Assembly: GCA_013820855.1 (NCBI GenBank)
Contig: JACDHV010000002.1
Span: 1-48,821 of the forward strand
Reading direction: 5' to 3'
Length of the DNA: 48,821 nt
Source of the DNA: Gemmatimonadales bacterium
GTDB lineage: Bacteria; Gemmatimonadota; Gemmatimonadetes; Gemmatimonadales; GWC2-71-9
The notes under the pieces were generated by a model. The model ran no database searches. It had not been told where the DNA came from and worked only from the letters and a program-made list of their open reading frames with translations. The translations under genes and the position numbers were made by a program. Of the stretch, positions 267-39,060 are shown in pieces. How positions within the stretch are numbered: the stretch's first letter is position 1; each line of letters opens with the position of its first letter.

Positions 267-2477
267 TCAGACCGCGAATGCCGCAAGCGCCACCTGGCCC
301 AGCGCGATGCCGCCGTCGTTCGGCGGCACGGCCCGGTTCGACCAGATACGGAGTCCGGCCGGGGCGAGGCGGGTGCGCAGCTCGCGGCTCAGCAACTCGT
401 TCTGAAATACGCCGCCCGAGAGCACGACGGTGGCGATGCCGGTGCCGTGGTGGAGCGCGAGCACCGCCGCGGCGAGACCGGCCGCGAGCCCGCCGTGAAA
501 GGCGCGGGCGACCGTGCCGCGGTCCCGGCCCGCCCGCCGGTCGGCGAGCAGGGCGGCGAGGAGCGGCCGGTAGTCCAGCACGCCGGCGGCGTAGGGCATC
601 GGGTACGGCTCGGCGGGGCCCCCGGCATGCGCGAGGTGCTCCAGCCAGACTGCCGCCTGACCTTCGTAGGTGATCTCACGCGTGAACCCGAGCAGCGCGG
701 CCGCGGTGTCGAACAGGCGCCCGGCGGAGGTCGTCGGGAAGCAGCGAACGTCCTTCGTCACCAGTTCGGCGGCACGGGCATAGCGCTCGGGCAGCTCGAA
801 CGGGGCCTCGCCGGCCGCGGGCGCCGTATCCGTCTGCGCGAGGAAGCCGGCGGCTGCCTGCACCGGCCAGCGGGCCGCGGCGTCGCCGCCGGGCAGCACC
901 GCGGGGAGGAGGTGCGCCGCCCGAACCAGCCCGCCCGCCACACTGCCGGTGAACAGCTCACAGCCCCAGATCGTCCCGTCATCGCCCCAGCCGGTGCCGT
1001 CGAGAGCGATTCCGATCACGGGCTCGTCGAGCATGCCCTGCTCGGCGAGCACGCTCGCGACGTGCGCCCGGTGGTGCTGCACCGCGTGGTGGGCCGCGGC
1101 GGGCAGGTCGAGCCCGTACGCCGACGACACGTAACCCGGGTGGGCATCATGCGCGACCATGAGCGCCGAGCGGTCCACGTCATACATCTCGAGCAGGTCG
1201 TCGATCGCGGTCGCGAAAGCTTCGCGGGCAAGCGCGTGATCGAGGTCGCCGATGTGCTGGCTCGCCACCGCTTCACCGCCGACGACCAGCACCACGGCGT
1301 TCTTCAGGTCGGCGCCGACGCCGAGCAGAGGACGCGCCGTCGGGATCCGCGCGACCACGCCGGGCGCGAGGCCGCGCGCGCGCCGCAGCACCACCGGCGG
1401 GCGCACCACCGAGTCATCCATGCGGCGGGCGATCGGCCGATCGCCTACGAGGAAGGCGTCGGCGATGCCGGTGAGACGGGCGGCGGCGTCGGAATCCTCG
1501 AATGCGATCGGCTCGCCCGACCGGTTACCACTGGTGAGTACCAGCACCGGCGGCGCGCCGGCATCGAACAGCAGGTGGTGCAGCGGGGTGGACGGGAGCA
1601 TCACGCCCAGCTCGTCGCTGTCGGGCGCCACTCCCGGCAGCTCGATGAGCGCGGGCGCGAGTACGATCGGACGGGCGACGCCGGTGAGCACCGCCTCCGC
1701 CCCGCGCTCGAGCCGCACGAGACGCTTCGCAGTGGGCAGATCGCGGGCGAGGAGCGCGAAGGGGCGCTCCTTCCGGAACTTCCGCGTCCGCAGCGCCTCG
1801 ACCGCGGCGGCGTTCGACCCATCGCAGGCGAGGTGATAGCCGCCGAGTCCCTTCACGGCGAGGATGCGGCCGCCGCGGAGCAGCGCAGCGGCGGCGGCGA
1901 CCGGATCGCCGGCATCCGATCCGGCGATCCCGCGCAGCACGTACCCCGGGCCGCAACGCGGGCACGCGACCGGCTGCGCATGGAACCGGCGGTCGGCGGG
2001 GTTGGCGTATTCGGCGGCGCACTCGGAGCACATCGGCCACTCGTGCATAGTGGTGCGCGGGCGGTCGTATGGCAGGCCGAGCATGATCGAGTACCGTGGT
2101 CCGCATTCGGTGCAGTTGATGCAGGGATAGCCGAACCGGCGGTCGGCGGGGTCGCGCAGCTCGCGCAGGCAGGCATCGCACACCGCTAGGTCGGGCGAGA
2201 TGCCGGCGGTCGGCCGTGCGGCGCCCGCGCTGTGGCGGATCTCGAACGCCGCCGGGGCGTGCGGCAGTACGGCGGAGGCATCGATCCGGTCCACCCGCGC
2301 CGCGACGGGAGCCTCGCGCTCGAGCGCCGTTGCGAAAGCGTCGAGCGTCCGCGGGTCGCCCTCCACGTGGATCTCGACGCCATCGCCGGTATTGAGCACC
2401 CAGCCGGCGATGCCATGGCTCCGGGCGAGCCGCCAGACGAACGGGCGGAACCCCACGCCCTGAACCACGCCACGCAC
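267..2477 (-). CDS. hypF: [NiFe]-hydrogenase maturation carbamoyltransferase HypF
   Basis: 736-aa ORF. It has an N-terminal acylphosphatase-like VQGVGFRP block and two Cys4 zinc-finger blocks (CDACLRE...CINCTECGPRYS and CSECAAEY...CPRCGPGY), followed by YrdC-like and Kae1-like regions. GTG start at 2477; a slightly more upstream start is possible. Confidence 0.95.
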   Translation of the reverse strand: MRGVVQGVGFRPFVWRLARSHGIAGWVLNTGDGVEIHVEGDPRTLDAFATALEREAPVAARVDRIDASAVLPHAPAAFEIRHSAGAARPTAGISPDLAVCDACLRELRDPADRRFGYPCINCTECGPRYSIMLGLPYDRPRTTMHEWPMCSECAAEYANPADRRFHAQPVACPRCGPGYVLRGIAGSDAGDPVAAAAALLRGGRILAVKGLGGYHLACDGSNAAAVEALRTRKFRKERPFALLARDLPTAKRLVRLERGAEAVLTGVARPIVLAPALIELPGVAPDSDELGVMLPSTPLHHLLFDAGAPPVLVLTSGNRSGEPIAFEDSDAAARLTGIADAFLVGDRPIARRMDDSVVRPPVVLRRARGLAPGVVARIPTARPLLGVGADLKNAVVLVVGGEAVASQHIGDLDHALAREAFATAIDDLLEMYDVDRSALMVAHDAHPGYVSSAYGLDLPAAAHHAVQHHRAHVASVLAEQGMLDEPVIGIALDGTGWGDDGTIWGCELFTGSVAGGLVRAAHLLPAVLPGGDAAARWPVQAAAGFLAQTDTAPAAGEAPFELPERYARAAELVTKDVRCFPTTSAGRLFDTAAALLGFTREITYEGQAAVWLEHLAHAGGPAEPYPMPYAAGVLDYRPLLAALLADRRAGRDRGTVARAFHGGLAAGLAAAVLALHHGTGIATVVLSGGVFQNELLSRELRTRLAPAGLRIWSNRAVPPNDGGIALGQVALAAFAV

Positions 2478-2515
2478 CCGGAGGAGCCGCGCCTCCGTCT
2501 CGACACCGCCCGGCG

Positions 2516-2803
2516 TCAGCGCTCCTCCGCGGCCGGCGGCGAAACGGTGCAGCCGCGGCCCTGCCAGCCGATGGCGACGACGCGCCCATCCTCGACCAAG
2601 ACCGGTACGGTTCGCCCGCCGCCGGTCAGCCGGTGCAGCCGCACCAGCGCCGCCGGATCGCGCTCGACGTCGTACTCCACGAACTCACGGCCCTCCCACT
2701 CGAGCCGCTCACGACACTCCGCGGTGTAGGGACAGGCCGCGCTGCCGAACAGCTCCACCCGCCGCCGTGGCTCCGGCTCGGCCGCACCGGTCCGCTCAAC
2801 CAT
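2516..2803 (-). CDS. Glutaredoxin/thioredoxin-fold small protein (monothiol CPYT motif, Cys near the C-terminus)
   Basis: Taken from the internal ATG at 2803 of ORF 2516..2953: MVERTG...VELFGSAACPYTAECRERLEWEGREFVEYDVERDPAALVRLHRLTGGGRTVPVLVEDGRVVAIGWQGRGCTV.... The ATG overlaps the upstream stop codon by 8 nt (ATGGTTGA). Confidence 0.7.
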   Translation of the reverse strand: MVERTGAAEPEPRRRVELFGSAACPYTAECRERLEWEGREFVEYDVERDPAALVRLHRLTGGGRTVPVLVEDGRVVAIGWQGRGCTVSPPAAEER

Positions 2804-3974
2804 TCGCCAGCGCCTCCAGCGCGCCCCGCAGGACATGATAGATGGACGCCTGCACCTCCTGGATCCGCGGGATGTAGTCGGACCGCACGACGAGGGCGTG
2901 ATCGGCGAGGCCGCGACGCACGATTTCGCCACCATCGTATCCGAGCAGGGCAACAGTCAGCATGCCGCGGCGCCTCGCTTCCTCGAGCGCCACGATGATG
3001 TTGGCGGAACCGCCGCTGGTGGAGATGGCGAACGCGATGTCGGCGCTGCCGCCGTGAGCGACGAGCTGGCGCAGGAAGACCAGCTCGATACCGACGTCGT
3101 TCGCGATCGCGCTCAGGCTCGCCGGCTCGAGCGACAGCGACAGCGCGGGCACCGGATGCCAGCCGGACGGCGGGGCCACGCAGTCGAGCGCGAAATCGTT
3201 CGCATCGGTGGCCGAGCCGCCGTTGCCGAAGGTGAGGACGCGGCCGCCGCGGGCCACGCGCTCGTGAATCGCCGCGGCGGCTGCCACGATCGCGCCGGCC
3301 TGCTCTGCCGCAACGGCCGCACGCAGCGCCTCATCGTCCGCCGCCTTGGCCCGGATCGAGTCGGCGACCTGCGCAGCGATCCCGCCCATCTCCTGCTTCG
3401 CCGCGCCGAGGAACGGGTAGAGAAAGCCGGCGGCGCCCACCTCATGGCCGCGCTCCCGGTGTTCGAAGAAGACGTGCACCGTCTCCCACAGGGTATGGTA
3501 GAGGATCTCGACCAGCTCCTGGTGCACGAACGGGTCGCTCGACGGTATCGGCGGAGCATAGTCACCGGCGGGGCCGCACAGCGCGAAGGTCTGTGCGCCC
3601 CGCGCGCCCGCCGCATCCAGCGCGGCATCCACCTCCGGATCGCCGGCGGGGCCGGCGAAGCCCATCACGATATCCTCGCCGGTTACCAGTGCCGGTACCC
3701 ACTCGGGAAACGCGATGGAGAGGTCGAGCGCCGGCAGCGCCCGCTTGCCGACGATCACCGGATGCACAAACTCGACGGCTACGTGCTGGGCGTCGGTGGC
3801 GCAGGCGCCGCGGCCGAACGCGAGCAACCGCCCGCCGCGCAGGAAACGCTCCGCCATTTCACGGCAGGCGGCGGCGAGCGGCTCGGCCTCGTGCGCGAAG
3901 AAGGCGGCCGACGCGGCATTGCGCGCTAGGAGCGCCTCCTCGACGATGCGCGACGGGGAGAGGAGCGACGGCAC
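2796..3974 (-). CDS. Double SIS-domain (GmhA/phosphoheptose-isomerase-like) protein of the hydrogenase cluster
   Basis: 392-aa ORF with two SIS-like halves (FGRGACATDAQHVAVEF... and FGNGGSATDANDFALD...AISTSGGSANI). GTG start 6 nt after the hypE stop. Confidence 0.8.
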   Translation of the reverse strand: MPSLLSPSRIVEEALLARNAASAAFFAHEAEPLAAACREMAERFLRGGRLLAFGRGACATDAQHVAVEFVHPVIVGKRALPALDLSIAFPEWVPALVTGEDIVMGFAGPAGDPEVDAALDAAGARGAQTFALCGPAGDYAPPIPSSDPFVHQELVEILYHTLWETVHVFFEHRERGHEVGAAGFLYPFLGAAKQEMGGIAAQVADSIRAKAADDEALRAAVAAEQAGAIVAAAAAIHERVARGGRVLTFGNGGSATDANDFALDCVAPPSGWHPVPALSLSLEPASLSAIANDVGIELVFLRQLVAHGGSADIAFAISTSGGSANIIVALEEARRRGMLTVALLGYDGGEIVRRGLADHALVVRSDYIPRIQEVQASIYHVLRGALEALANG

Positions 3975-3980
3975 GGCGGT

Positions 3981-5018
3981 TCAACAGATCCTGGGGAGGG
4001 GATCGCCGACGAGCATGTCGACGATACGGGCGCCGCCGTACGGCGCCGTCGAGAGCACCGCGCCGGCGGGCTCGGTGCGGATCTCGCCGATCAGCGCGGC
4101 CGCCTCGCCGCCGGGGGTCGCTCGCACAGCGGCCAGCGCGGCGTCGGCGACCTCCGGAGCGAGCACTGCGAGGAACTGCCCCTCGTTGGCGATGTGCAGC
4201 GGATCGAGCCCGAGCAGCTCACACGCGCCGCGGACCTGGTCGCGCAGCGGGATCATCTCCTCCAGTAGCCCCACACCGAGCCGGGTGTCGACGGCCAGCT
4301 CATTCAGTGCGCTCGCCACGCCGCCGCGGGTCGGGTCGCGCATCCAGCGGAGCCCGTCGGCTGCGACGTCGAGCAACCGCTCCACGAACGGCAGCACCGG
4401 ACGCGTGTCGGAGCAGAGGCTCGCCTCGAAGTCGAGCTCGCCGCGGGCGAGCAGGATGGTGATGCCGTGGTCGCCGATCGGCCCGGAGAGGAGCACCCGA
4501 TCGCCCGGCCGGACCGCCGCGGGCGAGAGCCGGGCCCGCGGGTCGACGATGCCGAGACCGGTCGTGGTGATGTACATCCCGTCGGCCTTGCCGTGCTCCA
4601 CCACCTTCGTGTCGCCGCCGACGACGCCGACGCCCGCCCGCTCGGCGGCCGCAGCGATCGCCCGCACCTCGGCTTCGAGCACCGACGCCGCGAGCCCCGC
4701 CTCGAGCACGAGCGTGACCACGAGCGCGGCCGGACGGGCAGCCGCCATGGCGAGATCGTTCAGGGTTCCGTTCACCGCCAGTTCGCCGATCGACCCGCCG
4801 GGAAAGCGAAGCGGCCGCACCACGAAGGCGTCGGCCGTGAGCGCGACCCGTTCGGCGCCGAGCTCGAGCACGGCGGCGTCCATCAGGGGACCGAGGAGCG
4901 GTCCTCCGAGCAGCGGCGCGATGAGCCCCTCGACGAGCCGGCGGCTCGCCTTGCCGCCCGCCCCATGCGCCATTTCGATCTGCGGGTCACGGAAGCGGAC
5001 CGCGCCGGCGCTTCTCAT
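3981..5018 (-). CDS. hypE: Hydrogenase maturation protein HypE
   Basis: Internal ATG at codon 45 of ORF 3981..5150. The N-terminus is MRSAGAVRFRDPQIEMAHGAGGKASRRL and the C-terminus is the diagnostic ...DPLPRIC. ATGA overlap with the hypD stop. Confidence 0.95.
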   Translation of the reverse strand: MRSAGAVRFRDPQIEMAHGAGGKASRRLVEGLIAPLLGGPLLGPLMDAAVLELGAERVALTADAFVVRPLRFPGGSIGELAVNGTLNDLAMAAARPAALVVTLVLEAGLAASVLEAEVRAIAAAAERAGVGVVGGDTKVVEHGKADGMYITTTGLGIVDPRARLSPAAVRPGDRVLLSGPIGDHGITILLARGELDFEASLCSDTRPVLPFVERLLDVAADGLRWMRDPTRGGVASALNELAVDTRLGVGLLEEMIPLRDQVRGACELLGLDPLHIANEGQFLAVLAPEVADAALAAVRATPGGEAAALIGEIRTEPAGAVLSTAPYGGARIVDMLVGDPLPRIC

Positions 5019-6160
5019 CCGGCCGCGGCGGCCGGCGCGGGAGCCGCGTCTTCCTCCAACCGGGCGCGCCGGTGCGCGAAGTTGTAGTAGGCGGCGCACG
5101 CGCCCTCGGAGGACACCATCAGGGCGCCGACCGGATGCTCCGGCGTGCACTCGCGTCCGAACAGCTTGCAGCGGTGCGGCTTGAGCACGCCCTTCAGCAC
5201 CTCACCGCACTGCGCCGCCTTCGGATCGGTTACCCGGACACCGGGCAGCTCGAACCGGCGCTCGGCGTCGAAGTCGGCGTAGGCCGCTGAGACACCGAGC
5301 GCCGACTGGGAGATGAAGCCGAGTCCCCGCCACTCGAAATACGGCCGCAGTTCGAATGTCTCAGCCATTGCCTGGAGCGCGGGGAGGTTTCCCTCCCACG
5401 GCACCACCCGAGCGTACTGGTTTTCCACCTCCGCCCGGCCCTCCCGGAGCTGGCGCAGGATCATGACGATTCCCTGCAGGACGTCGAGTGGCTCGAAGCC
5501 GGACACGACGATCGGCCGGCCGTAATCGCGGGCCACGAATTCGTACGGACGGCAGCCGATGACGGTCGAAACGTGCCCGGGGCCGATGAATCCGTCGATG
5601 CGCATGTCGGGCGAATCGAGGATGGCGCGGATGGCGGGAATGATCGTGACGTGGTTGCTGAAGACGGTCAGGTTCGGCACGCCGAGGCTGCGGGCGCGCC
5701 GCAGCGTCAGCGCAGTGGACGGCGCCGTGGTTTCGAAGCCGATCGCGAAGAAGACGACCTGCCGATCAGGGTTGTCGCAGGCAAGCTTGAGCGCGTCGAG
5801 CGGCGAGTAGACCATCCGGATGTCGGCGCCGCGCGCGATGTGCTCAAGCGGACTGCCGCGGCGCCCCGGCACCCGCATCATGTCGCCGAACGCGGTGACG
5901 ATCGCGCCGTGCTCGACCGCCAGGGCGAGCCCGTCGTCCACGCGGCCCATCGGCAGCACGCACACCGGGCAGCCGGGGCCGTGCACCAGCTCGATGCTGT
6001 CCGGCAGGAGATCCTCGAGCCCGAAGCGATAGATCGCATGCGTGTGGCCGCCGCACACCTCCATGAACCGATAGTGGCGGCCGGGCTCCATGAGCCGGCG
6101 GATCTCGTCGGCGGTCCGGCGGATGAGCTGCGGGTCGCGGAACTCGTCCACGTACTTCAT
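5015..6160 (-). CDS. hypD: Hydrogenase maturation protein HypD
   Basis: Internal ATG at codon 115 of ORF 5015..6502: MKYVDEFRDPQL...EVCGGHTH...GPGCPVCV...FETTAP...GPGHVS. The upstream 114 codons are Arg/Gly-rich junk. ATGA overlap with the preceding gene. Confidence 0.95.
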   Translation of the reverse strand: MKYVDEFRDPQLIRRTADEIRRLMEPGRHYRFMEVCGGHTHAIYRFGLEDLLPDSIELVHGPGCPVCVLPMGRVDDGLALAVEHGAIVTAFGDMMRVPGRRGSPLEHIARGADIRMVYSPLDALKLACDNPDRQVVFFAIGFETTAPSTALTLRRARSLGVPNLTVFSNHVTIIPAIRAILDSPDMRIDGFIGPGHVSTVIGCRPYEFVARDYGRPIVVSGFEPLDVLQGIVMILRQLREGRAEVENQYARVVPWEGNLPALQAMAETFELRPYFEWRGLGFISQSALGVSAAYADFDAERRFELPGVRVTDPKAAQCGEVLKGVLKPHRCKLFGRECTPEHPVGALMVSSEGACAAYYNFAHRRARLEEDAAPAPAAAAG

Positions 6161-13558: not shown

Positions 13559-14195
13559 GGTCCGGCGCGACCTCCTCCGCAAGAACGACCTGCTCGCCCA
13601 TCAGCTCCGATCGCGCTTCGCCGCCGCCGGGGTCACGGTCGTGAACCTCGTGTCGGGCCCTGGCGCCGGCAAGACCGCGCTGCTCGAAGCGACCCTCGCC
13701 GCGCTGCACCCCGGTCGCCGGGTGGCGGCGCTCGTCGGCGACCTGGCGACCGATAACGACGCGCGGCGGCTGGGACGCAGCGGGGCGCCGGTGCGCCAGA
13801 TAACCACCGGCACGGTCTGCCACCTCGACGCTGAGATGGTCGCCGCCGCGCTCGACGACTGGGACCTCGGGGCGCTCGACCTGCTGTTCATCGAAAACGT
13901 GGGGAATCTGGTCTGCCCGGCGAGCTTCGACCTGGGGGAGAGTCTGCGGGTGGTGCTGTTCTCGGTGACGGAGGGCGAGGACAAGCCGCTCAAGTACCCG
14001 ACGATCTTCAACGGCGCCGACCTGGCGGTGCTGACGAAGCTCGATCTCGCCGAGGCGGTCGAATTCGACCGGGCCGCCGCCTACCGCAACGTGCAGGCGG
14101 TGCGGCCGGGGCTCGAGATCGTCGAGGTGTCGGCCAAGCGCGGCACCGGGCTCGACGGGTGGCTCGCGCGGTTCAGCGCCCGTATTTCCGCATGA
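13539..14195 (+). CDS. hypB: Hydrogenase nickel-incorporation GTPase HypB
   Basis: Internal ATG after a GGAGGA SD, overlapping the hypA 3' end by 20 nt. It carries the P-loop SGPGAGKT, the ENVGNLVCPASFDLGE block and LTKLDL. There is no His-rich N-terminus. Confidence 0.95.
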   Translation: MTPRIVEVRRDLLRKNDLLAHQLRSRFAAAGVTVVNLVSGPGAGKTALLEATLAALHPGRRVAALVGDLATDNDARRLGRSGAPVRQITTGTVCHLDAEMVAAALDDWDLGALDLLFIENVGNLVCPASFDLGESLRVVLFSVTEGEDKPLKYPTIFNGADLAVLTKLDLAEAVEFDRAAAYRNVQAVRPGLEIVEVSAKRGTGLDGWLARFSARISA

Positions 14196-14927
14196 TCCCC
14201 CGCAACCGGTCATGCGGCAGGGCGTAGGACCGGACATCGTCGGCGCCGGTCATCGTGGTCGCCGCAACGAGCGCGTTCGTGATCGCCTCCTCAGTCGCCT
14301 GAACGGTGGCGGCGAAGAGCGGATCGATACGGCTGTTCGGCACCATCGCGAGCGGTACCGGGGCCGCCGAGTCGCGGGCCGCGCCGCGATTGGCAGTCGA
14401 AAAGGCGACGAAGATGTCGCCCGATCCGTTGCCGGCGATGCTCCCCTCCCGTCCGAGGCCGAGCGCCGCCCGCTTGACGATGCGCTCGAGCTGGTGCGGG
14501 AGCAGGGGCGCGTCGGTCGCGACGACGATGATGATCGATCCGAGCTCCCGCGCCGGCATCTCATCCGCGGCTCCATTCACCGCACCGGTGCGGCTCCCGC
14601 ACGCCGGCAGCCCCTTCAGGAATGCCTGCGACGGCTCGGCGCCGGCGGCGCAGAGCGTCGGCGCGTCGAACTCCCGCCCCACCAGCACTCCGGCGATCCG
14701 CAGCTGGCGCCGTGACCGTAGTTGCATTGCACGAGCACCCCGACGGTATAGCCGCCCTTGAAGCCGTTGCAGATCATGCCGGTGCCGCCGCCCACGGCGC
14801 CTTCGGCGACCGGCCCGCCCGTAGCGCCGTCCAGTGCGGCCGCCGCGTGTTCCGGCTTCACATGAAAGCCATCAATGTCGTTGAGGCGGTCGTCGCCATC
14901 TACGAGTATCAGTCGACCATGTATCAT
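14173..14927 (-). pseudogene. C-terminal relic of a DmpA/S58 (P1-family) aminopeptidase paralogue
   Basis: ORFs 14616..14927 and 14173..14727 together align to the C-terminal ~60% of the intact paralogue at 37840..39060 ([53 protein letters not shown]...RKYGR). The relic lacks roughly 190 N-terminal residues. It has a 14-codon deletion that removes IGTASRRLSDRAGG, the expected autoprocessing site. It also has a 1-nt frameshift near 14714. Confidence 0.8.
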
Positions 14928-15177
14928 GTTTAGGTCGTGGTGGTGGACGAGGTCTGGACCTCGGTGGGCTCCACCAATTTCGACAACCGGTCGTTCCGGC
15001 TGAACGACGAGGCCAACCTCAACATCCTCGACGCCGGGCTCGCCGCCGGCCAGGCGACGGTGTTCGAGGCCGACAAGGCGAGAGCCCGCCGGATCACATT
15101 CGATGATTGGCGCCGAGCGCCCCCGCCGGGAGCGGGCCGTCGAGTGGCTCGCGGGCCTGCTGCGGCTCCAGCTTTAG
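14889..15177 (+). pseudogene. C-terminal relic of a phospholipase D / cardiolipin synthase family gene (second HKD motif onward)
   Basis: The plus frame reads ...[12 protein letters not shown][TAG][29 protein letters not shown]. This is an H-x-K-x4-D...GS.N.D.RS motif with a stop codon (14931-14933) exactly where the catalytic Lys codon belongs. A frameshift in the C-run near 15120 separates ...ITFDDWRR from the typical tail [16 protein letters not shown] (TAG at 15175-15177). Everything upstream of ~14889 is missing. Confidence 0.75.
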
Positions 15178-15185
15178 GAGAGTCC

Positions 15186-16505
15186 ATGAGTTTTCTGCGC
15201 CGGTGGTGGGCCGGGGTCTGGTCCAGCCTGTGGTTCATCCCGGGCCTGATCGTGGTGGGGTCCGCCGGTGCGGCCGTGCTGCTGGTCGAGATGACCCTGC
15301 CCTTCGGCGACGCAGCCCTCCGGTGGCCTCGGCTCCTGGGAGCGGGGGCGGAGGGATCCCGGGGCATGCTGACGGCGGTCGCCACCTCGATGATCACCGT
15401 CGCCGGCGTGGTGTTCTCCATCACGATCGTGGTCCTGTCGCTGGCCTCCAGTCAGTACACCTCGCGGGTCCTCCGGAGCTTCATGATCGACCGGGCCAAT
15501 CAGGCGGTCCTGGGCGTGTTCGTCGGCATCTTCGCCTACTGCCTGGTCGTCCTGCGCACCATTCGGAGTGGGGACGAAGGGGTGTTCGTCCCCTCGCTCG
15601 CGGTTCTCGGCGGAGTGGTGCTGGCCTTCGTGGGCATAGGCTTCCTGGTCTACTTCATCCACCACATCGCGACCGCCATCCAGGCCTCGTCGATCCTTGC
15701 CGCGGTGGCGGAGGACACGCTCCGGGCCGTGGACCGGATGTTTGCCGAACAGGTGGGTGGGGCGGCGAATGATGAGGCGGCCTCCGCCAGGGAACAGGAC
15801 GCGCGGGTGCGGCACCGGCTGCCGGTCCCGGCGGGCCGGTCGGGCTACATCCAACTGGTGGACGACAAGGTGCTGCTCGAGGTCGCCCATCGGGGCGACA
15901 CGGTGGTACGAATGGAACGGAGCGTCGGCGAGTTCGTGATCGAGGGGGCCGTGCTGGCGGTAATCGAGGTGGAGGAAGCCGGCACTGCGCGGGAGGACAT
16001 CGGACGTCTGGCGGGCGCCTTCACCATCGACCGACAGCGCAGCGTTGACCAGGACCCGGCCTACGGGATCCGTCAGATCGTGGATGTGGCGCTGAAGGCG
16101 CTCTCGCCCGGCATCAACGACAGCACGACCGCGGTCATGTGCGTGGACTATCTGACGGCCATCCTCAGCCGGGTAGCCTGCCGCCACATCCCTTCGCCCC
16201 TGCGTACTCGGGACGGCGTTCTTCGGGTCATCGCCCGGGGGCCGTCGTTCGGCACGTTGATGGACGAAGCCTTCGATCAGATCCGGCAGCACGGCGGCGG
16301 AAACGTGGCGGTGCTGGGACGGCTGATCTGGGCCTACCGGTCGCTTTCCGAGCTTTCGATCGGGCCCGCCCAGCGCCGCCTCCTGCTCGACCATGTCGCC
16401 GCGCTGCGGGAAGCGATCCAGCGCACGGTCCCGTCACCCACCGAGCGCCGGGAGCTCGAGGCCGATCTGGATGAGCTGACCCTCCGGTTGGTCGAACCGG
16501 CCTAA
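15186..16505 (+). CDS. Multi-pass membrane protein (recalled DUF2254 family)
   Basis: Internal ATG at codon 84 of ORF 14937..16505, after an AGGAG SD: MSFLRRWWAGVWSSLWFIPGLIVVG...SMITVAGVVFSITIVVLSLASSQYTSRVLRSF. 439 aa. Confidence 0.8.
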   Translation: MSFLRRWWAGVWSSLWFIPGLIVVGSAGAAVLLVEMTLPFGDAALRWPRLLGAGAEGSRGMLTAVATSMITVAGVVFSITIVVLSLASSQYTSRVLRSFMIDRANQAVLGVFVGIFAYCLVVLRTIRSGDEGVFVPSLAVLGGVVLAFVGIGFLVYFIHHIATAIQASSILAAVAEDTLRAVDRMFAEQVGGAANDEAASAREQDARVRHRLPVPAGRSGYIQLVDDKVLLEVAHRGDTVVRMERSVGEFVIEGAVLAVIEVEEAGTAREDIGRLAGAFTIDRQRSVDQDPAYGIRQIVDVALKALSPGINDSTTAVMCVDYLTAILSRVACRHIPSPLRTRDGVLRVIARGPSFGTLMDEAFDQIRQHGGGNVAVLGRLIWAYRSLSELSIGPAQRRLLLDHVAALREAIQRTVPSPTERRELEADLDELTLRLVEPA

Positions 16506-16554
16506 GTCCCGGAATCAGTAGGGCGGTCGCAACCCGTCGCCGCATCAGTTCCGC

Positions 16555-17636
16555 TCATCGAAGAGCTCGGGCGCACGCGTCGGCGCGGCCCAACAGCACC
16601 TCGCGCTCGCGGGCGTTGCGGGTGAGCGATGCCGCGCGCTCGAACTCGGCGCGGGCCTCGTCGAAGCGGCCGAGCTTGTCGAGCAGATCGCCCCGCACGG
16701 CCGGAAGGAGGTGGTAGGACTTGAGCATCGGCTCCGCGGTCAGCGCGTCCACCCGCTCGAGGCCCGCCGCCGGCCCGAAGGCCACCGAGACCGCGACCGC
16801 CCGGTTCAGCTCCACCACGGGGGAGGGCGCGATCCGGGCCAGCTGCTCGTACAGCGCCGCGATGCGTTCCCAGTCCGTGTCGTCCGGCGTGCGAGCCCGC
16901 GCATGGCACGCGGCGATCGCGGCTTGCAATGCGTAGGAGCCGGAGGCCCCACCCAGCTCCCCGGCCCGTCGAAGCTTGGCCAGACCACGCCGGATGAGGA
17001 GTTGATCCCAGCGGCCGCGGTTCTGCTCGAGCAGGAGAATGGGCTCCCCCTCCGGCCCGATGCGCGCCTTGGATCGCGACGCCTGGATCTCCATCAGCAC
17101 GACCAGCCCATGCACCTCGGGCTCCTCGGGAGCGAGGCCGGCCAGAATCCGTCCCAACCGGAGTGCGTCCTCGCACAACGCCGGCCGCATCCAGTCGTCG
17201 CCGGCGGTGGCCGCGTAGCCCTCGTTGAACACGAGATAGAGGACCTCGAGCACCGACGACAGCCGGGCGGCGAGCTCGGGGCCCCGGGGGACCTCGAACG
17301 GTACCTTCGCCTCGGCGAGGGTCCGTTTGGCCGGACGATCCGCTGCGCGATGGTGGCGGTGGAAACCAGGAAGGCCCGGGCGATCTCCTCGGTCGTGAGA
17401 CCACCGAGCAGGCGGAGCGTGAGCGCGACCCGCGCCTCGGTCGAGAGGACCGGATGACAGGCGGTGAACATCAGGCGCAGCAGGTCGTCGCCGACGTGAT
17501 CGTCGATCGCGGCGTCGAGATCCGGCACGGCCGCCTCCTGGCGGGCCTCGAGCTCGTGCCCGAGCTGCTGCCGCGCGCTCATCGAGACGGTGGGCCTCAG
17601 GCTTTCCACCGCCACCGGCAGAGAACCTGGCGTCAA
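16555..17636 (-). pseudogene. ECF sigma factor with a long C-terminal (ECF42-like) extension, 5'-truncated and frameshifted
   Basis: Frame of ORF 17094..17636: ...DDLLRLMFTACHPVLSTEARVALTLRLLGGLTTEEIARAFLVSTATIAQRIVR. Frame of ORF 16555..17715 continues (A)KRTLAEAKVPFEVPRGPELAARLSSVLEVLYLVFNEGY... to the C-terminus. A single missing base near 17331 (CGGCCAAAC where CGGGCCAAAC is expected) splits the frames. The whole sigma-2 region is absent upstream. Confidence 0.75.
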
Positions 17637-17680
17637 CCTGGACCGTACCCCGCCGCGGCCCCGGACGTCCAGGTGGATGA

Positions 17681-18597: not shown

Positions 18598-18606
18598 GCT
18601 CCCCTC

Positions 18607-19191
18607 CTATCGATCGATGAACGTCATCATCTTCTCGTTGTACCTCGGCCCCGCCACCACCTCTGGCGGCAGCGCCCGGTCGAGCTCCGCGATCTCCCCC
18701 GGGTCGAGAGCCAGTGACGCGCCGCCGGCGTTCTCCTCCAGGTACCGCCGCCGCTTGGTGCCCGGGATGGGCACGATATCATCGCCCTTGTGCAGCAGCC
18801 AGGCGAGTGCCACCTGCGCGGGTGTGGCGCCTCTCCGCCGTGCCAGCTCGGTGACGACGGACGCCGCCCGCATGTTGGCATCGAAGTTGGCGCCCTGGAA
18901 CCGGGGATCTCCCCCCAGGCCGATGCCAAGCTCGCGGAGGACCGGGATGATGTCGCTCTCCAGGTTCCGCTCCCACAGGGAATATTCGTGCCGACGAGCT
19001 GACCGCCCTCGATGTGGAAGCCGAACTTGGTGGCGAGGACGACCTGGTCGCGCTTGCCCTTCAGTGCCCGGCCAAGCAGCTCCTCGTTGGTGAAAAGGGC
19101 CGTAGGCCTCTGCAGTGTCGAGGAAGGTGACGCCGATCTCGATGGCGGAGACCTCCAGGCCCTGACCACCGAGCTTCCGGGTCGGGAGCAT
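18607..19191 (-). pseudogene. Aldo/keto reductase relic: still an open 194-codon frame, but with three internal deletions and a frame excursion
   Basis: From the ATG at 19191 the frame reads MLPTRKLGGQGLEVSAIEIG|VTFLDTAEAYGPF, then about 35 out-of-frame codons, then EYSLWERNLESDIIPVLRELGIGL|GGDPRFQGANF...VALAWLL...DIVPIPGTKRRRYLEENAG...RY. The ancestral TNEELLGRALKGKRDQVVLATKFGF segment sits in the frame of ORF 18627..19169. Typical family members are about 330 aa. Confidence 0.8.
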
Positions 19192-19721
19192 CACAGCCCC
19201 GCGTGCCTCCGCGCGACGTCCGCCAGCGCGGCCCAGTCGCGATCTCCTTCGCCCTGGGCGACGGCCTCGAGCAGGTGGTCGCGGAGAACGCTCGCGAACG
19301 GCATCGGCGTCCTCGCGCCCTCGGCCGCCTCCAGTAGCAGCCGCAGATCCTTCAGGCCGAGCACGAGCCCGAACGCGGCCGAGACGTAACCGACGCCATG
19401 GCGCCGGTGCTCCGCCGCCAGCTCCTCGGCGAGACGCACCGAGATCGTGGCCATGTTCACGTGGATGGTGCCGGGTGGGGCTTCTTCCAGCAGGTCCGGA
19501 GCGAGGAAGATCCCGCGCACGGCCTCGTCGTCGGCGAGCATCGAGAACACGGTGCCCGTGCAGGCCATGCGGGCCTCGCTCACCGGCTCGGCACCCTTGC
19601 GGGCGAGTTCCTCCACCGGCAGGCGACTTCGATTCCAGACGCGAAGCTGGTGCCCCGCCGCGAGCAGGTTGGCGGCCATCGCGCTGCCCATGGCGCCGAG
19701 TCCGATGAATCCCGCTTCCAT
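19191..19721 (-). CDS. 3-hydroxyisobutyrate/6-phosphogluconate-dehydrogenase-like NAD(P) oxidoreductase with a large in-frame internal deletion (probably non-functional)
   Basis: 176 aa. The N-terminal Rossmann part (MEAGFIGLGAMGSAMAANLLAAGHQLRVWNRS...HGVGYVSA) is joined directly to the C-terminal FGLVLGLKDLRLLLEAA...GEGDRDWAAL block. About 110 residues that normally lie between them are absent. Its stop shares one base with the start of the downstream AKR relic (TGATG). Confidence 0.65.
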   Translation of the reverse strand: MEAGFIGLGAMGSAMAANLLAAGHQLRVWNRSRLPVEELARKGAEPVSEARMACTGTVFSMLADDEAVRGIFLAPDLLEEAPPGTIHVNMATISVRLAEELAAEHRRHGVGYVSAAFGLVLGLKDLRLLLEAAEGARTPMPFASVLRDHLLEAVAQGEGDRDWAALADVARRHAGL

Positions 19722-19775
19722 TGCCGTAACCTAGGTACGTCGATGCCGTGGGAGAACCGCGAGGAGCGGCGCGGG

Positions 19776-19910
19776 TCAGAACTCGATTTTGCCCACCACG
19801 CCTCGCACCGGGCCCAGCTTCCGCGAGACCCACTTCCCGCTGAGATGGCCCAGCAGGCCGCCGGTGAGCACGTCGGAGGTCCAGTGCCGGTCGTCGTTGA
19901 CCCTGGCCAT
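19776..19910 (-). pseudogene. C-terminal relic of a PAP2-family phosphatase
   Basis: Hand translation gives MARVNDDRHWTSDVLTGGLLGHLSGKWVSRKLGPVRGVVGKIEF*. This carries the third PAP2 motif (R-x5-H-x3-D). The rest of the protein is missing and a stop codon lies 19 codons upstream. Confidence 0.5.
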
Positions 19911-20012
19911 GGCGGTCACCCTGGAGGTGAATTGCGCTACCCGGGGGGCTCGGCGATGGGTCCGCTATCTCCTCCGGTGCGAAAGCTCGACGCGAGAAGA
20001 GAGCGGTGAAAT

Positions 20013-23143: not shown

Positions 23144-23878
23144 GTGACGGACCGCCACACCAATCCCGATCCTCCTCCAACCCGCCTCCCCCTGATCGGC
23201 GGGGCCCTGGCGCTGCTCGTGGCGGTCATGCCGGGAGCCGCCGGGGCGCAGCGCCAGGGCGGGGTGCCGCCGGAGGAGGTGGCGAGGGCCGTAGTGCTCG
23301 CGGACTCCACGGGGGATTGGGGCGCGCTGCTGCGGCTCGCCCATCCGGACGCCCTGATCCGGTTTCGCGGCCTCCAGACCTTCCAGCTGCGGATGCTGGG
23401 CACTCCGGAGCCGGTGATCGACACGCTGGCGGCCGATTCGATCGCCGCCGACTCCAGCCTCCAGGCCCGCTGGCATCGGGCTCGCACCCGCCAGGTGCGG
23501 TTCATGCTCGACTCCGTGTTCCAGGTTCCCGACCTGGACTCGCTGGCCCACACGTCCCCCGATACGGTGTTCGCCCGGTGGTTCCGGGGATCCCGGGCGA
23601 TACATGCCGGGGATTCGGGCGCGGTCGCCGCGAAGCGACCTCCCTCCTATCGGGTGATCGGCGCCGTCCGGGCGAGCGATACGCTGGCGTACGTCGTGGT
23701 GGAGCGGCCGGTGGTGCAGCCGCTCGGGCCGATGCCGCAGATGTTCCGCGACTTCCCCCACGAGACGCACCAGACCGAGGTCATGGTCATGCGGCGCTAC
23801 GGGCGGGAGTGGAGGAGCATGCTGGACGGCGTCGGCGAGCCCTACGGCTTCGGCGCCGAACTGGAGGCCGAGGAGTGA
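23144..23878 (+). CDS. Secreted hypothetical protein (signal peptide)
   Basis: 244 aa; GTG start. The N-terminus ...[24 protein letters not shown] looks like a Sec signal. Confidence 0.7.
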
Positions 23879-24207
23879 CCCTGGCCCTCTCCCTCGCGCT
23901 CGCCCTGGTTCTTTCCGTCGTCTCCACGCCACTCGCCCAGCAACGAGCCCGCGCCCGGGAGCTCGGGATCGCTCCGGGCCTGCTTCCGGCCGGTCCGCTC
24001 AACGCCATCACCGACGTCGCGGGTGTCGCCGTGGGGCAGACCACGGTGCGCGAGGGCGACTCGGTCAGGACCGGCGTCACCGCGATCGTCCCCCACGGGG
24101 GCGACGTCTTCCGGGAGCGGGTGCCGGCGGCCATCCACGTGGGCAACGGCTACGGAGAGCTGGTCGGCGTCAGCCAGGTGGCGGTGGCGGCCGCCCTCGG
24201 GGTCTGA
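23875..24207 (+). pseudogene. N-terminal relic (~110 codons) of a DmpA/S58 (P1-family) aminopeptidase
   Basis: GTG overlapping the upstream stop (GTGA): [58 protein letters not shown]...[13 protein letters not shown]...NGYGELVG. This aligns to the first ~105 mature residues of the intact paralogue at 37840..39060. The homology then ends and a stop codon follows. Confidence 0.7.
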
Positions 24208-37235: not shown

Positions 37236-37766
37236 ATGGACGACCCGCGTTATCCCATCGGCCCGTTCGCTTTCGACGGTCTGCGGACGCCGGAGCTGCG
37301 CCGCGACCGTATCGCGCGCATCGCCGCGGCGCCGGCCAGGCTCCGCGCGGCGGTGACCGGCTTGACGGACGCGCAGCTCGACACGCCCTATCGCGACGGT
37401 GGCTGGACGGTGCGCCAGGTGGCGCACCACGTGCCGGACAGCCATCTCAATGCGTACACCCGCTTTCGGCTCACCCTGACCGAGCCGCAGCCGACCATCA
37501 AGCCGTACCTGGAGTCCCGCTGGGCCGAGCTTCCCGACGCCCGCGGCGCGCCGGTGGAGATGTCGCTGGCCCTGCTTGAGGCGCTGCACCTCCGGTGGGT
37601 CTTGCTGCTCCGAAGCCTCGAGTCCGTGGACTGGGAGCTGACCTACGTGCATCCGGAGCATGGCCGGGAGTGGTCGCTGGACGAAGCGCTCGCGATGTAC
37701 GCCTGGCACGGCGAGCACCACACCGCGCACGTCACCCGGCTCCGCGATCGCGAGGGGTGGCGATGA
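37236..37766 (+). CDS. YfiT/DinB-family putative metal-dependent hydrolase or thiol transferase
   Basis: 176 aa: ...YRDGGWTVRQVAHHVPDSHLNAYTRFRLTLTE...YAWHGEHHTAHVTRL. Confidence 0.85.
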   Translation: MDDPRYPIGPFAFDGLRTPELRRDRIARIAAAPARLRAAVTGLTDAQLDTPYRDGGWTVRQVAHHVPDSHLNAYTRFRLTLTEPQPTIKPYLESRWAELPDARGAPVEMSLALLEALHLRWVLLLRSLESVDWELTYVHPEHGREWSLDEALAMYAWHGEHHTAHVTRLRDREGWR

Positions 37767-37839
37767 CGACCCTGGCGGATCGCCGAACGGTGGTTCGGCG
37801 CCGCCGAGCGGCAGCTCAGCCCCGGTGAGGTCGCACCCC

Positions 37840-39060
37840 GTGAAGCCCGGTCGCGCGCTACCGGTGCTGCTGGCGGCGGCCTTAGCCCTGGGCTCGGGTC
37901 CGGCCGGCGCGCAGGGAGTTCCCGCCAGGGCGCGCGATCTGGGCATACCGCTCGAGGGCACGCCCGGCCGGCTGGACGCGATCACCGACGTGCCCGGCGT
38001 GACTGTAGGGCATGTGACGATCGTTCGGGGAGCGGGGAAGCTCGCGGTGGGAAAGGGTCCCGTCCGCACCGGCATTACGGCCGTGTTTCCGCGCGGGAAG
38101 GCCGATCTGGCTCCGGTCTTCGCCGGCTGGTTCAGTCTCAACGGCAACGGCGAGATGACCGGGACGGCCTGGGTCGACGATTATGGACTGTTGGCCTATC
38201 CCATCACCATCACCAACACAAACAGCGTAGGCACCGTGCGGGATGCGGTGATCGAGTGGGGCCGCACCCGGCTCTCCGACGCGTTCAACTGCTGTCTTCC
38301 CGTCGTGACCGAGACGTGGGACGGCGACCTGAACGACATCTACGGCTTCCACGTGACCAAGGGCCACGTATTCCGCGCCCTGGAGAGCGCGGTGCCAGGC
38401 CCCGTGCCCGAGGGCAACGTCGGCGGCGGCACCGGGATGAGCTGTCTGGGGTTCAAGGGCGGCATCGGTACCGCGAGCCGGCGGCTCTCCGACCGGGCCG
38501 GCGGCTTCACCGTCGGCGTGCTGGTGCAGTGCAACTTCGGCCAGCGGCGGCTGCTTCGAATCGCCGGCGTGCCGGTGGGGCAGGAGATCACGGAGCCTCG
38601 CCCCTGCTACGAGGGGCCGGGCCTCGACTCGGCGCGTGCAGCCGAGCGCTGCCCTACGGGCGTCACCCGCCCGGAAAAGGACCAGGGCTCCATCATCGCG
38701 GTGGTGGCCACCGACGCCCCGCTGCTGCCGCATCAGCTCCGCCGCGTGGCGCGGCGTGTAGCGCTCGGCATCGGCCGGATGGGCGGAATCGCGGGGGCCG
38801 GATCGGGCGATCTGTTCATCGCCTTCTCTACCGCGAGCACCGGCACACCTGGAGAGCACGGCGTCAGGCCGGTGCGGATGCTGGGTGAGGAATGGATCGA
38901 CCCGGTGTACGAGGCGACGGTGCAGGCCACCGAGGAGGCGATCATCAACGCGATGCTGGCCGCGAAGACCATGCGTGGCGCCGACGGATACGTGGTGCCG
39001 GCACTGCCGCACGATCGGCTCAAGGAAGTACTTCGGAAATACGGCAGGCTGGCGGACTAG
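37840..39060 (+). CDS. Intact DmpA/S58 (P1-family) aminopeptidase with a signal peptide
   Basis: GTG at 37840 (alternative 37825): (M)KPGRALPVLLAAALALGSGPAGAQG...ITDVPGVTVGH...GGGTGMSCLGFKGGIGTASRRL...VVATDAPLLPHQL...ALPHDRLKEVLRKYG. Confidence 0.9.
   Translation: MKPGRALPVLLAAALALGSGPAGAQGVPARARDLGIPLEGTPGRLDAITDVPGVTVGHVTIVRGAGKLAVGKGPVRTGITAVFPRGKADLAPVFAGWFSLNGNGEMTGTAWVDDYGLLAYPITITNTNSVGTVRDAVIEWGRTRLSDAFNCCLPVVTETWDGDLNDIYGFHVTKGHVFRALESAVPGPVPEGNVGGGTGMSCLGFKGGIGTASRRLSDRAGGFTVGVLVQCNFGQRRLLRIAGVPVGQEITEPRPCYEGPGLDSARAAERCPTGVTRPEKDQGSIIAVVATDAPLLPHQLRRVARRVALGIGRMGGIAGAGSGDLFIAFSTASTGTPGEHGVRPVRMLGEEWIDPVYEATVQATEEAIINAMLAAKTMRGADGYVVPALPHDRLKEVLRKYGRLAD

Follow-up and report, generated by a model that had tools for sequence, protein, structure and literature searches.

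We analyzed a 48,821-nt stretch of DNA from a Gemmatimonadales bacterium (the whole stretch is hereafter called the window) and found that, at 14883-14894, the remnants of two genes meet head to head: an S58 (DmpA/BapA-type) peptidase on the minus strand and a cardiolipin-synthase-like phospholipase D (PLD) on the plus strand. With a probability of about 0.82, we consider this a genuine, non-functional junction of two gene remnants in a Gemmatimonadales-like soil bacterium, at a place that varies between strains and is eroding fast. Judged from alignments, both are pseudogenes, each being truncated and disrupted in frame relative to intact homologues of the same or related genomes, and the two stumps most probably have no present function. 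An earlier note on this DNA, made from the letters alone, had proposed that a deletion or rearrangement joined two genuine relics, and this proposal stands. The features at the center of this analysis are the following.

14883-14894, no strand: junction zone GAGGCGGTCGTC, an imperfect 12-nt microhomology between PLD and peptidase
14173-14712, minus strand: distal segment of the S58 peptidase relic, comprising the last part of the alpha chain and a complete beta chain (PF03576)
14713-14894, minus strand: proximal segment of the S58 peptidase relic, in the other frame, starting at about codon 181 of the full-length homologue
14883-15177, plus strand: cardiolipin-synthase-like PLD relic, the last 98 codons with the second HKD motif only (PLDc_2)

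Two 5'-truncated genes are joined at 14883-14894

The window is contig C341 of a metagenome bin, G000 (3.49 Mb in 363 contigs, 70% G+C), whose nearest named relative is an uncultured Gemmatimonadales genome. As intact peptidase references we used C219, a paralogue within the window (37660-39060) and contig C171 of a relative genome (G014:C171). PLD references were C202/C203, C228, G020 and L019, a locus from another Gemmatimonadales genome. The hydrolase and PLD genes of L019 (L019:3401-6109) are each split across frames (e.g., PLD as 4727-6109 and 5133-5987), probably through indel errors of that assembly, which calls for caution in using it as an intact reference. A close strain, L025, was represented by contig CBFDRI010000008.1 of GCA_965611895.1, which is 98.3-99.5% identical to the window in aligned blocks.

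The minus strand at 14173-14894 corresponds to the 3' 59% of an S58 peptidase gene. The Pfam profile Peptidase_S58 (PF03576) is matched by 14173-14727 (profile positions 186-304 of 307, E = 3e-38) and by 14616-14927 (positions 111-186, E = 6e-16), such that the relic belongs to the profile yet covers only its positions 111-304, split over two frames. The distal segment shares 73% amino acid identity with the intact G014:C171 peptidase. On the plus strand, 14802-15116 matches PLDc_2 (PF13091; positions 65-131 of 132, E = 9e-13) and the PLDc active-site motif (PF00614; E = 6e-6), the TAG codon described below being read through for this search only. Full-length relatives of the PLD gene score 288 bits on the cardiolipin synthase profile TIGR04265, against a cut-off of 290. 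The similarities to full-length homologues are thus significant on both sides of the junction, and each lesion is confirmed by the alignments. Both genes lack their 5' ends, although the "halves" of the earlier note were approximate: about 180 of 434 codons are gone from the peptidase and about 321 of 419 (77% of the gene, first HKD motif included) from the PLD.

At the junction itself, GAGGCGGTCGTC can be read as PLD (homologues have GAGGCGGGCGTC or ATC), and its opposite strand can be read as peptidase (G014 has GACGGCGTCCTC). PLD homology begins at 14883, and peptidase homology stops between 14885 and 14894. There is no mobile-element (insertion sequence, IS) scar at this point, and no sigma-70-like promoter or terminator was found within 14100-15400; the lack of a promoter is weak evidence that no functional product is made. 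An exact 22-mer across the junction, sought in genome and metagenome collections, gave two chance matches only (one unrelated alphaproteobacterial sequence).

Look-ups with exact proteins (the 521-aa fused open reading frame (ORF), HypB and a 169-aa peptidase stub) led to other assemblies that carry the same sequence. Contig JAITZQ014687721.1 (41 kb) of GCA_020064125.1 is 100% identical to window 14150-15250, the Logan assembly of SRR11719875 to 14602-15250, and the Logan assembly of ERR15133369 to 13971-15008. These ranges take in the junction, the TAG codon and a 42-nt deletion, as well as those frameshifts that fall within each range. Misassembly is excluded for practical purposes, because three other assemblies are 100% identical across the junction and the lesions that they span.

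The peptidase relic retains its autoprocessing nucleophile

DNA alignments with the three intact homologues (G014, C219 and the in-window paralogue) revealed a 42-nt (14-codon) in-frame gap in the peptidase relic, GFKGG[...]YTVG, which falls between TTCAAG and GGCGGCTATACC and is located within 14751-14757. In intact genes, the missing segment is flanked by two GGCGGC (Gly-Gly) direct repeats, and its loss exactly between them is what a slipped-strand deletion predicts. The same alignments show a 1-nt deletion at 14712/14713 (CNYG-CA|CGG), one base being missing in TACGGTCA-CGG. Both the loss of 14 codons and the 1-nt frameshift had been noticed before and are evident against intact homologues. 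The relic does not provide a complete alpha-beta precursor of about 370 residues in a single frame, owing to the N-terminal loss, the frameshift and the 14-codon deletion.

The 14 lost codons had, however, also been said to contain the autoprocessing nucleophile, and this is incorrect. The relic retains ELG|SIIIVVATDAPLLPH (the bar marks the cleavage site), with the Ser codon at the complement of 14536-14538. The in-window paralogue aligns over its whole length with BapA (PDB 3N2W; E = 2e-96), and the N249|S250 position of BapA aligns with ...DQG|SIIAVVATDAP... of this paralogue and with ELG|SIIIVVATDAPLLPH of the relic. The two BapA sequences in the PDB differ solely at ...QDKN[S/A]LLIVIATDAP..., a difference that we take to be that of a Ser250Ala precursor mutant. 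In a published study, N-terminal sequencing gave SIIVVIATDA as the beta-chain N terminus, and the Gly|Ser cleavage was found to be "in accordance with" DmpA and BapA (PMC9570944). The S58 nucleophile is therefore the Ser of G|SIIIVVATDAP; since it lies in the retained ELG|SIIIVVATDAPLLPH site, it is outside the deleted codons, and the relic still has a self-cleavage site of the Gly/Asn|Ser type. The 14 deleted codons align instead with about I184-R197 of the BapA alpha chain, a conserved GG-IGT(A/S)S...GG segment, which means that the nucleophile of S58 peptidases is not to be sought in the KGGxGT motif. Hence, of the claim that each gene was also hit at its catalytic center, the part concerning the PLD holds, with TAG at the HKD lysine, and the part concerning the peptidase does not.

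At its left end, the relic stops at 14173-14175 and overlaps the 3' end of the convergent hypB gene by 23 nt (14173-14195). It terminates 3-10 codons before its homologues (RKYGR-stop versus RKYGRLGGS-stop or RKYHRLVPAP-stop), and this left edge may be another rearrangement scar.

As for the origin of the peptidase, the closest intact homologue, in G014, ends an operon of aldehyde dehydrogenase (ALDH), aminotransferase and peptidase genes. The counterpart of the aminotransferase-ALDH pair in the bin lies on contig C145 (91% and 87% amino acid identity); an IS630-type end cuts it off right where the aminotransferase stop codon lies, which is suggestive. We do not claim that the relic is the peptidase that once followed this pair: the junction has no IS scar, and identity to the G014 peptidase is only 65-73%. 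C145:1-76 and the ends of C338, C208, C109 and C23 share an identical repeat of 76-124 nt, which encodes the C terminus of an IS630-type transposase (...FQWTATADSILAKIERLTKRISGTSH-stop) and ends in CTAG. A second S58 relic is present in the window at 23800-24207 (plus strand), with a signal peptide and about 90 N-terminal residues followed by a stop, and it belongs to a different subfamily. We rejected its N-terminal fragment (23938-24207) as the missing half of the relic studied here, given 45% identity to G014, the lack of the subfamily-specific insertion and a gap of about 50 codons.

The PLD relic carries a stop at the HKD lysine

The PLD stump has only the C-terminal one of the two HKD (HxKx4D) motif regions of its family, and in this motif the K codon is TAG. 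Alignment to four PLD homologues places this TAG (14931-14933) at the lysine of H-V-K-VVVV-D, where the homologues have AAG or AAA, in agreement with the first reading of the sequence. The stump reads GTT TAG where the four genes read GTG or GTC followed by AAG or AAA, such that a tandem GA>TT change makes the stop. The frameshift noticed before the PLD tail is an insertion, A15116, which is missing from all homologues and from the ~99%-identical strain L025; the tail ends at the native PLD stop, TAG, at 15175-15177. The position of the stop on the HKD lysine is, in our view, a coincidence without functional meaning, because by then the first HKD half was already missing from the stump.

The ratio of nonsynonymous to synonymous substitution rates (dN/dS) is 0.18 for the peptidase relic against its closest intact homologue (G014:C171), and 0.18-0.31 for the PLD stump against working PLDs, compared with 0.15-0.24 among working PLDs. 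This divergence, nearly all of it accumulated under purifying selection (dN/dS about 0.2) in working genes, indicates that both relics were inactivated recently.

A duplicated or imported block has the PLD stump at its left end

The earlier note had missed a wider structure: a truncated gene lies at either end of a duplicated or imported block, one of the two being the PLD stump, an intact PLD gene exists elsewhere in the genome, and close strains differ at this very spot. The block spans about 2.7 kb (14883-17570) and consists of the PLD 3' end at its left end, an intact DUF2254 gene and an extracytoplasmic function (ECF) sigma gene that is 5'-truncated by about a quarter, which is followed by a second head-to-head junction.

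15186-16505, plus strand: intact DUF2254 membrane-protein gene (PF10011, positions 2-366 of 368, E = 7e-120)
16555-17570, minus strand: ECF sigma-factor relic, the other end of the block, from frame translations and alignments to L019 and C203
17726-17902, plus strand: start-less tail of a TPR-like gene, which faces the ECF relic

Window 14883-15173 matches C203 391-680 at 83%, and window 16568-17569 matches C203 724-1721, also at 83%. The PLD-tail and ECF segments are the only parts of the 48.8-kb window with a high-identity duplicate within the bin, and for this reason we rejected the possibility that the contig derives from a contaminating congener. C202 and C203, which share an overlap of 134 nt, jointly give the order alpha/beta hydrolase, full-length PLD, ECF sigma gene (minus strand) and, further on, radical SAM. 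The L019 locus is collinear with the block, in the order hydrolase, PLD, DUF2254, ECF (minus strand), kinase and radical SAM. From the C202/C203 duplicates and the collinear L019 locus, it follows that the window holds a second copy of the PLD locus. In the C202/C203 copy, PLD is intact and DUF2254 is absent; in the block, DUF2254 is the sole whole gene and has 77% amino acid identity to its L019 orthologue, which follows a full PLD gene. The two copies of the locus thus show reciprocal loss, one having kept PLD and the other DUF2254. In sequence, the block resembles L019 (PLD 86.4%, ECF 85.2%) slightly more than C203 of its own genome (82.0% and 82.7%), and the data fit an old paralogue as well as they fit import from a related lineage.

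In the ECF relic, the sigma-2 region of about 96 codons is gone and one nucleotide is deleted at 17330/17331. L025 does not share this 1-nt deletion, and gene calling there gives a 324-aa Sigma70_r4_2+DUF6596 gene. The other ECF copy (C203:724-2025, minus strand) has a 5-nt deletion (GG-----ACGAGG) about 25 codons before its stop, and both ECF copies of the genome look damaged. At the second junction, the 52-aa call in L025 that corresponds to the TPR-like tail gives a weak TPR_12 match, and 72-80 nt at about 17571-17649 are absent from L025.

Beyond these features, the junction is bordered on the left by a [NiFe]-hydrogenase cluster ending with hypA and hypB, and on the right by the DUF2254 and ECF sigma genes and several oxidoreductase genes.

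A close strain reveals rapid erosion of the region

A comparison with close relatives, which the earlier note had called for, showed that L025 differs at the very spot of the junction, and among 40 relatives no orthologous locus was found, that is, no junction and no adjacency of hypB to peptidase or of peptidase to PLD. In L025, the PLD stump does not start until window position 15003, where the opening ~52 codons of an isochorismatase-like gene run into it in frame. The corresponding open frame (L025:1133-1684) joins the isochorismatase-like hydrolase (ALLLIDVQQGLDEPRYG...PVIHFQ) to the last 59 PLD codons. This chimera is a second, independent junction in the same PLD stump. The left flank of L025 is also different: a short-chain dehydrogenase/reductase (SDR) relic and small phage-like genes lie upstream, none of which occurs in the bin.

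To the right of the block, L025 has full-size genes for an aldo/keto reductase (AKR; 328 aa), a HIBADH-like protein (289 aa) and PAP2 (245 aa). Window 18600-20000, aligned with L025 5036-7773, shows deletions of 81, 241, 81, 339 and 12 nt in the AKR and HIBADH-like genes, the 241-nt deletion being followed by a compensating +1 A, such that all five are net frame-preserving. A further deletion of about 673 nt in the window removes most of PAP2. The ends of the AKR/HIBADH/PAP2 deletions share 1-4 nt of microhomology. Indel density is unusual, with at least 10 in about 7 kb versus about 1% point divergence between the strains. The spot is thus a hot zone of strain-specific deletions, the junction being one of them. 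Set against this ~99%-identical strain, the window shows, on a dated scale, how fast a ~7-kb stretch erodes beside an atmospheric-H2 hydrogenase island.

Assuming a one-in-three frame chance for each, p is ~0.004 for the coincidence of the 42-nt deletion in the peptidase with the four of these deletions whose length is an exact multiple of three. Selection to keep dead genes translatable, e.g., by avoiding Rho-dependent polarity on downstream operon genes, could account for such a strain-specific burst of mostly in-frame deletions; we regard this as improbable, at odds of roughly one in eight. If true, it would mean that pseudogenes shrink in frame rather than simply breaking.

The 522-codon frame is probably a chance fusion

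14937-16505, plus strand: chance 522-codon open frame, from a GTG within the PLD stump into DUF2254

The ORF track hides the PLD tail, as had been noticed, within a single ORF that runs from the PLD stump into DUF2254. This frame is made up of 60 PLD codons, a 22-codon out-of-frame linker that A15116 creates, and then DUF2254; it owes its existence solely to this insertion, which brings the PLD tail into frame with DUF2254. Gene callers translate ORF 14937-16505 into a 521-aa PLDc_2+DUF2254 protein.

The frame could be a new functional fusion, in which the stump supplies a start and an N-terminal extension for DUF2254 after promoter loss. It is open and is annotated publicly as one gene, A15116 is recent and strain-specific, and in L025, where the PLD-DUF2254 fusion is absent, a chimeric ORF (isochorismatase N terminus and PLD tail) also precedes DUF2254. 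However, continuity of the frame has a one-in-three chance, the native DUF2254 ATG (15186) is kept with its usual spacing, and of the more than 100 DUF2254 homologues, which are 430-470 aa long, none is listed with such an extension. No promoter-like site was found upstream either. Moreover, DUF2254 differs from its L025 allele (1693-3012) at 17 bases with a dN/dS of 0.54, a value that, with these small numbers, hints at relaxed constraint between the strains. We therefore consider a new fusion very unlikely. Sixteen of the 17 differences lie within the first 192 codons, 10 codons change their residue, and both lineages contribute. The public calls of a 521-aa "PLDc_2 + DUF2254" protein and a 169-aa "Peptidase_S58" protein are best treated as relic artefacts.

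The lesions are best explained by neutral decay

A stop on the HKD lysine and a peptidase deletion that takes out the very conserved KGG-IGT(A/S)S motif could be taken as adaptive, targeted inactivation, with key residues knocked out under selection first and truncation following later. Several observations argue against this. The peptidase nucleophile is untouched, and the 42-nt deletion lies between GGCGGC repeats, as slippage predicts. An intact PLD paralogue remains in the genome, which means that PLD activity was not lost. Finally, eight or more further deletions over the following 6 kb show a general decay process. We give targeted inactivation little credence, even less than the fusion.

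An assembly chimera, in which unrelated contigs were misjoined at 14883-14894 and the lesions are consensus errors, would suit a bin of 363 contigs, and head-to-head truncated genes are a classic chimera signature. Yet the identical sequence comes from three other assemblies, at least two further read sets and another assembler; an imperfect match of 12 nt is not enough to mislead a k-mer assembler; and in-gene stops and indels are not made by chimeras. This explanation is extremely improbable. That the genes still work through recoding, with TAG read as an amino acid, programmed frameshifts, or the peptidase ORFs serving as separate alpha and beta chains, has next to no chance either: TAG does fall exactly on the Lys codon and the distal peptidase ORF does still contain a complete beta chain as well as the G|S site, but the PLD stump lacks 77% of its gene together with the first HKD, the start and the promoter region, and its own native stop is a TAG; from the peptidase, about 180 N-terminal codons and 14 residues of a conserved core segment are missing; and in the ~99%-identical strain, loss of the PLD stump has simply gone further.

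We thus return to a genuine junction of two gene remnants, for which we propose the following model. One illegitimate-recombination event at the GAGGCGGTCGTC microhomology would have placed a peptidase gene, broken in its middle, against the final quarter of a PLD copy, either by deleting all that lay between two divergently oriented genes or through integration of an imported fragment that was subsequently trimmed. After truncation and promoter loss, neutral lesions would have piled up in both stumps: the 42-nt slippage deletion between GGCGGC repeats, the 1-nt deletion, the GA>TT change that makes TAG, and the 1-nt insertion.

Four points weigh against this reading. The microhomology is imperfect, with 9-11 matches out of 12. 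The three other assemblies may come partly from related samples. No genome searched has the ancestral arrangement, i.e., hypB beside an intact copy of the peptidase, or the peptidase beside PLD, and as a consequence deletion and fragment integration are indistinguishable. L025, in turn, lacks the segment that carries the TAG, the 42-nt deletion and the peptidase frameshift, and these lesions cannot be dated by it.

Comparison with known systems

The peptidase relic resembles BapA (PDB 3N2W) and DmpA (PDB 1B65), the N-terminal nucleophile (Ntn) hydrolases of family S58 (P1), with which it shares PF03576, the G|SIIxVxATDAP site and the beta chain. In contrast to these enzymes, it lacks the first ~180 codons as well as 14 residues (about I184-R197 of BapA) and is frameshifted. 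From its sequence, it is predicted to be unable to fold or to self-process, and it is to be viewed as a remnant rather than a member enzyme of the family. The PLD stump resembles cardiolipin synthases of the PLD superfamily (TIGR04265, ClsA/ClsB type, two HKD motifs), in that its last 98 codons align with the C-terminal PLDc_2 with the spacing H-x-K-x4-D-x6-G-S-x-N. Unlike a cardiolipin synthase, it has the second HKD region only, with the Lys codon replaced by TAG, and a frameshifted tail. The locus as a whole resembles ordinary gene remnants formed through microhomology and slipped-strand events, here with abutting truncated genes, a short imperfect homology and a 42-nt deletion between 6-nt direct repeats. 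There is no essential difference from such remnants, and only the density of events is unusual here. Taken together, the junction represents an ordinary, already known kind of pseudogene formation, which changes nothing for either enzyme family.

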